Shown: in pieces, positions 16,144 to 18,268 of the stretch
Layout: every line of letters begins with the position of its first letter
Position numbering within the stretch: the stretch's first letter is position 1
From: a virus
Taxonomy: Duplodnaviria > Caudoviricetes
IMG/VR virus record: IMGVR_UViG_3300050021_000174
Coordinates: 1-59,504 of that record
Strand: one strand, 5' to 3'
Length of the DNA stretch: 59,504 nucleotides
The notes under the pieces: model-generated
What the model was told of the DNA's origin: nothing
What the model saw: the letters and a program-made list of their open reading frames with translations, nothing else
The model's database searches: none
Program-made: the position numbers and the translations under genes

Positions 16144-16479
16144 TCAACCTTTCTCCCACCTCGCAGTCCCGTTTCCGGGAACTGCTATGTCAAGGAAGCC
16201 ATGTTCGATCAGGCTGTCAATCGCTCTCAAAAACCGGGGTGGCGTTATCCCCATCTTTTCGGCAGTGCGGTACGGAAACACAAGCTGGTCATGATTTGTG
16301 CAAACCCATTTCCCGGCTTTCCGCTTAGTTTTCTCCATCTTGCGCTTTCCTAAAAAAAGCAGATAGATTTGCGGAGCAATCCCAGGTGGAAGATTCAACC
16401 ATGCTGCCGATGTGACAATTTCGCGGTCAATAACAATCGGGCCGAGAGGCCGTTTTGCTTTTTGCCCAGAATTCTCCAT
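16144..16479 (-). CDS. Winged-HTH protein, possibly truncated
   Basis: SAAWLNL...QIYLLFL...FPYRTAEKMGI...FLRAIDSLIEHGFLD. Confidence 0.55.
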   Translation of the reverse strand: MENSGQKAKRPLGPIVIDREIVTSAAWLNLPPGIAPQIYLLFLGKRKMEKTKRKAGKWVCTNHDQLVFPYRTAEKMGITPPRFLRAIDSLIEHGFLDIAVPGNGTARWEKG

Positions 16480-16589
16480 TAAATATGGACCCCTCCAAGA
16501 TTTACAATTCCCCCATTCCCAATATACCAATAAACGGGTTATGATGGAATAGAAAATTCGAGGGTCGGAACATTTCATTCACTTTTTGC

Positions 16590-16618
16590 TTGCAATCAGC
16601 TTTCAATGAGATTAAGAT
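16590..16618 (+). promoter_or_regulatory. Sigma70-type promoter of the rightward ncRNA/recombination operon
   Basis: TTGCAA-N17-TAAGAT. Confidence 0.5.
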
Positions 16619-16640
16619 AGTTGTGAAAGTGAGGGAAGCG

Positions 16641-16838
16641 ATGACGCAGCAAGAGATGAAAGATTGGATTGATTCAGCTTCTTATGAGCAGCTTTTGAGA
16701 AAATGGCGTTTTGCACCCGCCGGAGATCCCTTCTTCTGTGGAGAAATTGGAGGCTATTACACCGAGAAGCTCCACGATAAAAAGCAGGAAGTGGGACAAT
16801 CGGAGCATGTTGCTGCAAGTAAGTCGATAGGCTGGTAA
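16641..16838 (+). CDS. Small phage hypothetical protein
   Basis: WIDSASYEQLLRKWRFAPAGDPFFCGEIGGYY...HVAASKSIGW; GAGGGA RBS. Confidence 0.65.
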   Translation: MTQQEMKDWIDSASYEQLLRKWRFAPAGDPFFCGEIGGYYTEKLHDKKQEVGQSEHVAASKSIGW

Positions 16839-16850
16839 CCGAAACACCCG

Positions 16851-16986
16851 CCACGCTCCGCTTGTTTCGACTCGCGGTCCTGTGAGCGGCAACCGCCCGA
16901 AGATTCCAACCCCGTCACCATGAGGACCGGATGAAGCGGGCAGGAAACAGAATCGGAAACGGCAAGAACGGAAGCGGAGTGAACTG
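16851..16986 (+). ncRNA. Structured RNA domain upstream of the tRNA-like RNA
   Basis: CGCTCCGCTT(16854-63)/AAGCGGAGTG(16972-81) closing helix; CGGTCCT/AGGACCG inner helix; GCGG-CAA-CCGC hairpin. Confidence 0.5.
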
Positions 16987-17288
16987 TGGTGGAGTTGCCG
17001 AAGTAAAGGCGCGGTTTAGTAGGCACGAGGTAACCGGACATGTCAAAGCTGATTAGGCCAGGTAGACGCGAACGAGAGGCTAGAAACAGGCACAAGCGAG
17101 CGATGCTCTCGCATTTATCGCCAACCTGTGCGGAATGGGTGACGCTGAAGCTCGGACGTAAGAAGTTTTCTATCTGGTGCAGGAACCAGCTTTCATCCAC
17201 TGGTGGCCGATAGCTGAAAGTATCGCAAGAATGGACGAAGAGCACCCGACGTATCCATGCAGGTATCAAATCCTGTCTCCACCAACCA
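16987..17288 (+). ncRNA. tRNA-like RNA with a giant structured variable arm
   Basis: Acceptor (T)GGTGGAG/CTCCACC(A) followed by ACCA, D-arm GCC/GGC, stem CGGTT/AACCG, T-arm GCAGG-TATCAAAT-CCTGT, ~220-nt insert closed by GACATGTC/GACGTATC. Confidence 0.65.
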
Positions 17289-17551
17289 ACAATTCAACCA
17301 GGAGGATAACATGAGAAAAACGATCATAGGTCTGGCCATTGTATCGCTGCTCGGTTCGGCGGGAGCTTCATAGGAGTTCAAAATGAAACGGGCCGGAGAA
17401 AGTCCGGCCTCATAAGGCTCTACAAAGACGATCGTTCCAGAAATGGAGCGCGGGACAATCTGGCCCGGCTGGGCTGGGGATATTTTGTTAATTTCAGAAA
17501 CGACGACAAGAAAAACCCCTGCGGGCTTTCCTGTGGGAGAAAGGAGGGGTA

Positions 17552-18268
17552 ATGCTAATCCAAATCAAAAAATGGGTAGACGGTAGCGTTTTGCACGCTA
17601 TTGAGGCTGATAACCTCAATGCTGCTGTTGAAATGCTGATTTCGAAGTCGGCCGATCTCTCCGGGGCCGATCTCTCCGGGGCCGATCTCTCCGGGGCCGA
17701 TCTCTCCTGGTCCAATCTCTCCAGGGCCAATCTCTACAGGGCCAATCTCTACAGGGCCAATCTCTCCAGGGCCAATCTCTACAGGGCCAATCTCTACAGG
17801 GCCAATCTCTCCAGGGCCAATCTCTACATGGCCAATCTCTCCTGGTCCAATCTCTCCGGGGCCTATGGGATAAGCAAATATCTAACGACTCCACTCTATA
17901 TGCTGCTCGATCAACCTGGGCTTATCCGCGCATATAAGCTCGTGACCGATAAAAATACCGGCCCAACTTACCCCGGAACCATCTACGCGCAGGGCCAAAA
18001 GTATGAAGTCGCGAATGCGTGCTGCGACGAATCCGAACAATGTGCTGAAGGCATTAGTTTAGCCACTCTCGATTGGGCGATGAAGGAATGGAGGCCGGGA
18101 TTCAAGATTTTGATCGCCGAGTTTACTACTCAGGAAATAGCTGCAATACCTATAAGTAGTGACGGAAAATTTAGAGTGAAATCCTGCCGGATTGTAGGCG
18201 AAAAGGATTTGAAAGAGCTGGGGCTGGAAAACGAGCAAGTCAACGCAGAATCGGAGGAACAATCATGA
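17552..18268 (+). CDS. Pentapeptide-repeat protein with a phage C-terminal domain
   Basis: A(D/N)LxR/G pentapeptides; C-terminal AYKLV...CAEGISLAT...DGKFRVKSC. Confidence 0.85.
17650..17860 (+). repeat. 15-bp tandem repeats encoding the pentapeptides
   Basis: GCCGATCTCTCCGGG / GCCAATCTCT(A/C)CAGG units. Confidence 0.9.

Follow-up and report, generated by a model that had tools for sequence, protein, structure and literature searches.

A conserved folded RNA that encloses a small basic-protein gene in the early region of a tailed phage, with a tRNA-like outline in part of its family

The window analysed here is a complete virus record of 59,504 base pairs (bp) with direct terminal repeats (Duplodnaviria; Caudoviricetes; IMG/VR record IMGVR_UViG_3300050021_000174), and the element under study occupies positions 16987–17288 in its early region, close to ParB-like and Erf-like genes. 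An original prediction, made from the letters alone, had described this stretch as a non-coding RNA of about 300 nucleotides (nt) shaped like a tRNA, with a large structured domain in its variable arm. We find a discrete, conserved RNA domain of about that size with paired ends, as had been predicted, and homologues support it; a conserved small open reading frame (ORF) runs through its interior, so that the non-coding label falls. We propose that the element belongs to a family of modules, so far undescribed, from the early regions of phages, in which a folded RNA, acting in cis, controls and stabilises the message for its own small protein. Taken as a whole, we give this reading a probability of about 0.6.

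The family analysed consists of the window and 14 relatives, 13 from viral contigs and one from an Ohtaekwangia metagenome-assembled genome (MAG) contig, after removal of duplicates. DNA similarity searching with 16850–17420 gave no match in phage records or E. coli genomes, neither the 5' frame nor the left flank had an exact-pattern match in viral contigs, and tblastn with ORFs of 41 and 57 amino acids (aa) found nothing in phage records. Synteny probes led to 14 loci through an 82-aa upstream gene and to six through the Erf-like gene, and the element was absent from all 20; a 144-aa flanking gene gave no locus. Five viral loci were obtained by back-translating blocks common to antisense ORFs, a 20-mer of the most conserved block yielded nine viral loci and three genome contigs, and a peptide-pattern scan gave four further viral loci. 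One candidate, L036, was rejected as matching the 20-mer by chance; its genome gave no protein match. Across the family the modules are RNA domains of 275–395 nt. Same-strand neighbours lie 8–67 nt from the element in several loci, consistent with its being cut out of a polycistronic transcript. Cellular genomes seldom carry the family: two phylum samples each had it in 1 of 401 genomes, each time the index genome itself. No description of the family was found in titles or the opening lines of abstracts; supplements could hold such motifs.

The original prediction saw no credible sense-strand ORF, yet positions 17040–17213 of the plus strand encode 57 aa followed by a TAG stop (MSKLIRPGRREREARNRHKR...TLKLGRKK...GGR), and a homologous ORF is present, with its frame kept, in 15 of 15 members. 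It is open in all of them from a conserved ATG through LKLGRKK despite variable length between the motifs, and the distance from conserved block 1 to block 3 falls into a single frame class in 12 of the 14 homologues, with differing lengths. Pairs of differing codons are synonymous 787 times in frame versus 211 and 271 times in the two shifted frames, so that synonymous differences are 3–4 times commoner in frame than out of it. Variability is greatest at third codon positions (0.53 vs 0.43 and 0.38), and third positions vary directly past the conserved ATG. Frame conservation and synonymous excess, together with homologous predicted proteins, mark the small ORF as coding.

The family proteins are basic and arginine-rich, 54–135 aa among members, and share an N-terminal motif G-[KR]-R-E-R-E-A-R-x-R-H-K-R and a central L-K-L-G-R-K-K; a third motif, A-V-P-V-A-D-S-R-K, follows later in the peptide in most members. 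The 57-aa protein of the window carries GRREREARNRHKR and LKLGRKK. A peptide profile matched 247 database proteins of 54–160 aa at E<=0.001, every named one of which is "hypothetical" and none of which has a Pfam domain. Longer fused forms comprise one 244-aa protein without domains. AlphaFold2 (77 sequences) predicts a helix at residues 9–17, a beta hairpin at 21–38 and a helix at 40–54, with a predicted local distance difference test score (pLDDT) of 75.8. The protein is hydrophilic and basic and may resemble the basic motif of the RNase P protein; the core of its arginine-rich N-terminal helix is invariant. It has no Pfam or PHROG match, a sequence search of the PDB returned none, Foldseek against the PDB gave a best E of 2.5 with three weak IscB rows at E 2.5–4, VIA-align of the model reached a best Z of 3.3, and the Protein Atlas held no usable match. 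In the window, in L044 and in database protein P0083 the third block lies in another frame and the stop falls within it. We considered the 57-aa ORF of the window as a pseudogene and rejected this; because L044 and P0083 share the short ending, the 57-aa form is a recurrent short variant and no wreck. Alternative genetic codes open no frame across the gap.

The RNA is conserved in its own right. Helices were derived with RNAalifold on the 15 core sequences and a pair count, and the search for covarying homologues ended in 14 relatives whose core helices do covary. The core comprises, all on the plus strand, Ha or the C-stem (17022–24 with 17213–15, three pairs), Hb or the NC-stem (17029–35 with 17202–08, six pairs), Hc (17068–76 with 17151–59, seven pairs, 98.1% of cells paired) and Hf, a small internal hairpin at 17130–17145, GCG/CGC in the window (17130–32 with 17143–45), two of whose three pairs are changed on both sides. 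Of these 19 pairs, eight have changes on both sides, and 97.5% of cells are paired. None of 500 shuffles reached any of these measures, and slid controls were 21–39% paired. Compensatory changes beyond the controls were found in the core, in the terminal helix and in P3 (both described below), as in a conserved secondary structure. Two blocks form the long-range junction. The 5' leader block (17018–17035) has invariant or nearly invariant columns in the 15 sequences and reads AGUA, the C-stem GGC, a two-base bulge, GA and the NC-stem GGUAACC. Block 3 (17202–17218) reads NC-stem 3' GGUGGCC, GA, UA, C-stem GCU and GAA, and covaries with 17022–17035. G-A steps are invariant on both strands between Ha and Hb, as are AGUA and GAA outside Ha. 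These may represent a kink-turn, which has tandem sheared G-A pairs between a canonical and a non-canonical helix with a 3-nt bulge, and a bulged-G (loop E) motif, which has AGUA opposite GAA. The letters required are invariant in 15 of 15, the exact strand layout occurs in six members, and the window shows a 2-nt bulge with two extra bases on the other strand.

Protein and RNA constraints thus fall on the same bases. Hc joins the codons of R-E-R-E on its 5' strand to those of L-G-R of LKLGRKK on its 3' strand, so that the two peptide motifs conserved most strongly are paired at the level of their codons. One of its pairs shows changes from C-G to U-A and to G-C, and L040 pairs a synonymous C-to-T in one strand with a G-to-A in the other, the latter turning Arg into His. 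Block 3, in which the TAG stop of the window lies, is kept in all three frames, reading P-V-A-D in 12 of the 14 homologues, G-G-stop in L044 and the window, and W-P-I in L040. The synonymous sites of block 1 are nearly fixed, and this holds even for the four loci that only the peptide pattern had brought up. The only Shine–Dalgarno (SD)-like sequence, GAGG, lies in Hb within the leader block.

Around this core the ends of the element pair with each other. The acceptor-like helix of the original prediction is present as P1, an 8-bp inverted repeat of TGGTGGAG (16987–16994) and CTCCACCA (17277–17284), with pair probability 0.62–0.97 and cognate complementarity in the family. The TT linker after it and the two flanking hairpins are likewise in the sequence: a D-like hairpin, GCC-GAAGTAAA-GGC, at 16997–17010, two bases past P1 (pair probability 0.99–1.0), and a T-like hairpin, GCAGG-TATCAAAT-CCTGT in DNA letters or GCAGG-UAUCAAAU-CCUGU as RNA, at 17259–17276, flush with P1 (0.91–0.98). 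For P1 and the two hairpins together, pair probabilities were 0.62–1.0 across transcripts of 302 to 1016 nt. P3 pairs GCGGU (17011–17015, at the anticodon-stem position) with AUCGC (17222–17226), and a local hairpin Px (17231–17258, AUGGACG...CGUAUCCAU), which includes the ACGTATCC block conserved in the alignments, stands at the variable-arm position and folds similarly in the tRNA-like members; all of these features are on the plus strand. The minimum-energy fold of the window holds P1, D, P3, C-stem, NC-stem and T. In 14 of 15 members P1 recurs at the corresponding position, with differing sequences; with search windows narrowed to the observed positions, cognate strands scored 24.6 vs 17.0±3.2 for non-cognate ones, which none of 100000 random pairings reached. 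P3 is 4–8 bp long in the family and scored 12.7 for cognate vs 10.6 for non-cognate strands, a value reached by 44 of 100000 random pairings. ViennaRNA duplexfold with long flanks (cognate -55.8 vs non-cognate -49.3±9.2) was uninformative.

Two further helices of the original prediction do not survive. Its anticodon-position stem CGGTT/AACCG and the helix GACATGTC/GACGTATC, said to close the insert, both have pair probabilities near 0 and clash with the helices supported by covariation; they overlap P3, Hb and the start codon of the ORF, which GACATGTC contains. A local stem equivalent to that anticodon-position stem can be drawn in the leaders of L042 and L044, just upstream of GAGGTAAC (in L042 it has 5 bp and differs from that of the window by a compensatory change; in L044 it has 5 of 6 pairs). 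Mutually exclusive with the NC-stem, it may be an alternative conformer in a subgroup. The insert had also been placed in the variable arm, and the large domain lies instead at the position of the anticodon loop, past the 5-bp P3.

How far does the likeness to tRNA go? Seven of the 15 members (the window, L027, L029, L030, L031, L033 and L042) share the order P1, a linker of 0–2 nt, a purine-loop hairpin, P3, the large core, P3', a local hairpin and a hairpin flush with P1'. This is the topology of a class II tRNA with the anticodon loop replaced by about 200 nt, and to that extent the predicted tRNA-shaped frame holds. In the six members other than the window the hairpins at the D place have stems of 5–6 bp, varied in sequence, and purine-rich loops. 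The remaining eight lack a D-like arm and generally have only P1, P3 and one stacked hairpin; in one of them, L032, a hairpin occurs at the D place, offset by 4 nt. In all 14 members with P1 a hairpin ends 0–3 nt before its 3' strand. Terminal helices measure 8–12 bp in the tRNA-like subgroup and 6–15 bp family-wide, against 7 in tRNA; since these lengths vary and eight members lack a D-like arm, tRNA mimicry is not a family-wide property. The T-like loops have 5–9 nt (8 in the window), the D-like loops lack a conserved G-G, and there is no anticodon loop. The predicted ACCA tail is there in the window (17285–17288); none of the six other tRNA-like members encodes CCA after its terminal helix. 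L032 also has, at 1745–1790 of its minus strand, a hairpin with a canonical 7-nt T-loop at the place of the T-like arm, just upstream of a 415-aa ORF that is an integrase by eye; this hairpin may represent the 3' portion of a host tRNA within an attachment site.

Dedicated tools do not recognise the element. ARAGORN reported no tRNA or transfer-messenger RNA (tmRNA) in the window, nor in 19 loci scanned from the 14 homologue contigs, and with introns and lowered thresholds it gave only unrelated low-grade candidates in the window. The RF00005 tRNA model run over the genome found nothing at E<=10, and either half of the element alone likewise gave nothing. Rfam 15 had no hit in the window at the gathering threshold; at E<=10 the region and its halves matched only a microRNA fragment and a fly long non-coding RNA fragment, and nothing relevant appeared on the 14 homologue contigs. 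Several known classes were tried and set aside. A tmRNA is rejected because neither ARAGORN nor Rfam matches one, the third pair is U-A or G-C, and the ORF has an ATG and encodes a conserved protein. For a group I intron, RF00028 gave nothing at E<=10 in the genome and nothing in the homologue loci at E<=1 or the gathering threshold; RNase P RNA models gave no match at the gathering threshold, nor at E<=10 over 16700–17600. For a retron RNA, no reverse transcriptase was seen among the ORFs adjoining the element, and terminal repeats of a transposon are rejected in that the terminal-helix sequences differ between members.

Close relatives of the phage lack the element. The window sequence was found mainly in peat metagenome runs, and contigs from two of these, X3 and X4, match 16454–16947 and 17406–17580 without a difference and diverge in between, with zero cover over 16988–17357 in both runs. 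The evidence used from X3 and X4 consists of loose ends and of a contig continuing unlike the window. With perfect flanks and a divergent interior, close phage relatives carry other content in place of the cassette at 16948–17405. One X3/X4 variant shows, after 16947, an apparent ribosome-binding site and a different gene start. The interval looks like a hot spot of accessory-cassette exchange. The sequences 16931–16950 and 17384–17403, alike at 16 of 20 bases, both start with ATGAA and both encode MKRAG, and it is possible that these repeats at the cassette edges are recombination joints.

From these observations we propose that the terminal helix, together with its stacked hairpin, would delimit and stabilise a discrete RNA inside a polycistronic early transcript. 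The long-range junction, formed by the leader and the block about 180 nt downstream and holding the only SD-like GAGG, would gate translation of the small protein. The arginine-rich N-terminal helix of that protein may bind RNA and so exert feedback, plausibly at its own junction. Two extra hairpins lend the junction its tRNA-like outline in the subfamily of the window.

A number of results weigh against this proposal. Neither sequence nor fold searches match the protein to a known RNA-binding fold or family, and the assignment of kink-turn and bulged-G motifs to the junction is tentative. The 302-nt stretch is not unusually stable (-97.2 kcal/mol, z = -1.42, with 11 of 100 shuffles equally stable). 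A fixed 20-mer of block 1 served to collect some of the members, and therefore the conservation of block 1 is partly ascertainment; the members are related, and therefore the shuffle controls overstate independence. Narrowing the windows for P1 was a post hoc choice; with wide windows the scores are 25.3 vs 21.1±3.4, and 3 of 15 cognates are best in both row and column. No terminal helix was found in L032, that of L044 has only six contiguous pairs, and a sequencing-run search found no RNA run containing the 16987–17288 stretch.

Several other explanations were weighed. If the frame were a true tRNA mimic, a substrate of RNase P, 3' trimming and CCA addition, these enzymes would excise the module or allow it to be a decoy or competitor for tRNA-binding factors; this is the idea of the original prediction with the ORF added, and its layout is reminiscent of tmRNA. 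The shared order from terminal helix to flush hairpin in 7 of 15 members agrees with this, as do the mutually similar T-like loops of four members (UAUCAAAU, UGUCAAGC, UAUCAAGC and UAACCAAC) and the ACCA end of the window, but the silence of the tRNA models, the terminal-helix and T-loop lengths, the D-like loops without G-G, the six subgroup members without CCA and the eight without a D-like arm make it doubtful. A more elaborate version, in which the module is a phage tRNA–mRNA chimera whose frame recruits tRNA-handling enzymes or the ribosome while protein and kink-turn/loop-E core form a ribonucleoprotein (RNP), strikes us as improbable; were it true, the RNP would act on host RNA metabolism or defence and be a functional cousin of tmRNA–SmpB, independently invented by phages. 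That the tRNA-like pattern arose by chance in an ordinary spacer is scarcely credible. A frame as loose as the predicted one occurs once in the window, as the element itself, and 0.04 times per window in dinucleotide shuffles (16 of 400 had at least one); without the arm with the 15-nt loop, three occur vs 1.46 expected. By itself the frame is therefore marginal for one window and within chance for a large scan, over which many cases would arise, and the failure of tRNA tools and the ordinary fold energy would suit an accident. We count the outline as real because homologues place cognate-specific terminal helices and adjoining hairpins at the same position; they keep helices with different sequences, which refutes chance unless the alignments are wrong.

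The small ORF bears on the remaining possibilities. In a purely non-coding structured RNA, the frames would be by-products of stop-free conserved blocks; gene callers do report ORFs on both strands, and conservation at the synonymous sites of block 1 and in the three frames of block 3 exceeds what the peptide needs. The 3–4-fold in-frame synonymous excess, indels between motifs that preserve the frame in 15 of 15, and the conserved ATG with third-position variation right behind it nevertheless leave this very unlikely. A message of the type I toxin kind, inert through 5'–3' pairing until processed and met by an antisense RNA antidote, would explain why a terminal helix encloses the small ORF and the only SD-like sequence is buried, and presence or absence in close relatives is frequent for addiction or exclusion modules. 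The protein, though, is hydrophilic and basic and no membrane peptide, a simple scan for sigma-70-like sites revealed no antisense promoter, and the conservation of the antisense ORF is accounted for by sense-strand constraints; we regard the idea as rather improbable. About as little can be said for N-like antitermination, in which the arginine-rich N-terminus would bind the D-like hairpin so that early transcription resists terminators. The invariant core of that helix, the location in the early region and, in six members, a GC-rich 5-bp hairpin with a purine-rich 6-nt loop 45–60 nt 5' of the start codon point that way. Against it, only 7 of 15 members have the hairpin and eight do not, no conserved boxA-like sequence adjoins it in the alignments, the RNA conserved family-wide is the long-range junction and not the D-like hairpin, and neither Pfam nor PHROG matches an antiterminator family.

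As to the surroundings, the element had been placed downstream of a promoter; a simple scan for sigma-70-like sites over 16546–17600 on both strands disclosed no promoter-like site. Its left neighbour is the 82-aa gene at 16590–16838. Homologues of the product align only from residues 9–29 onward, and since the closest begins at a residue corresponding to Met18, translation probably starts at the ATG at 16641 (65 aa), which would leave space for divergent promoters. To the right lies a 20-codon ORF, MRKTIIGLAIVSLLGSAGAS (17311–17373; 17300–17373 with its strong Shine–Dalgarno sequence, a perfect AGGAGG), within the variable cassette. Its product is signal-peptide-like and ends just past what resembles a cleavage site with small residues; the ORF could encode a tiny membrane peptide or be the truncated gene of a secreted protein. 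At the right edge of the cassette a GC-rich 7-bp hairpin (17391–17409) is terminator-like on the minus strand only, where it has a T-rich tail, and no minus-strand gene lies upstream. Further right is a pentapeptide-repeat gene (17552–18268) with three exact 21-nt copies at 15-nt spacing in 17650–17700; in all four runs examined many unrelated contigs cover that interval very deeply, and depth there is therefore uninformative about the phage.

The opposite strand carries a 170-aa ORF (16757–17269, minus strand) that is called as a gene in public data. Its codon score is -0.09 vs 0.21±0.08 for coding windows. A word-indexed search with it found itself only, and HMMER over 1.84 billion representatives found three related ORFs of 78, 132 and 182 aa, which share three short blocks with residues 14–94 and have unrelated ends; short common blocks with unrelated ends led us to suspect a conserved nucleotide element beneath the gene calls. 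The 170-aa ORF is probably spurious, and all four proteins (P0001, P0004, P0005 and P0006, of 170, 78, 132 and 182 aa) look like antisense readings of the conserved blocks. Constraints on the sense strand explain why the antisense ORF exists and why it is conserved.

Phage genomes are rich in tiny unannotated genes, and here gene callers chose the wrong strand. The case presents a widespread family of small proteins, with 247 predicted members, in which the message itself is a multi-helix RNA, conserved and covarying, with protein and RNA constraints superimposed on identical bases. It offers a tractable model for the insulation and control of a small gene within a polycistronic phage transcript, for the co-evolution of arginine-rich peptides with RNA folds, and for a tRNA-like outline as a possible mRNA processing signal. 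It is also a candidate new RNA family for Rfam, and the spurious antisense "proteins" should be flagged.

Among known systems tmRNA (SsrA) is like the element in size (about 300–400 nt), in paired ends that form an acceptor-like helix with an adjoining T-like hairpin, in an irregular long helix that replaces the anticodon arm, and in an ORF within the large enclosed domain. The element differs in having no G-U at the third acceptor pair and a real hairpin as its D-like part; its ORF begins with an ATG of its own and yields a conserved basic protein instead of a degradation tag; about half of the family lacks the tRNA-like arms; and neither ARAGORN nor the Rfam tmRNA models detect the element. 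Group I introns in tRNA anticodon loops likewise place a large structured insert at the anticodon-loop position. Here, unlike those introns, Intron_gpI gives no match at E<=10, the helix order is unlike the group I core, no anticodon loop can be restored, and the frame lacks tRNA identity.

In hok and aapA messages, long-distance 5'–3' pairing blocks translation of a small-protein mRNA until processing takes place. The element likewise has end-to-end pairing that encloses a small ORF and holds the ribosome-binding region in structure. For the aapA3 system a bioRxiv preprint (10.1101/615682) presents, in outline, toxin mRNA folding as what governs it. The product of the element is, by contrast, hydrophilic and arginine-rich, no antisense partner was seen in the simple promoter scan, the internal fold is far more elaborate, and the sequence is more conserved.

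The N proteins of lambdoid phages bind nut hairpins, and the N leader is structured. Both have an early protein that is small, basic and arginine-rich at its N-terminus, together with a structured leader and, in some members of the family, a purine-looped hairpin upstream; the element differs in having no family match, an optional hairpin, no boxA, and RNA conservation in a long-range junction that includes coding sequence. In autoregulated messages such as ribosomal protein leaders, RNA-binding proteins recognise kink-turns or loop-E-like motifs. The junction of the element differs in that about 180 nt separate its strands, one of which falls within the ORF or directly behind it, and in that the encoded protein has no known fold. 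By analogy, it may nonetheless resemble these leaders in its invariant tandem G-A steps between helices, with AGUA and GAA beside them, around its own ribosome-binding region.

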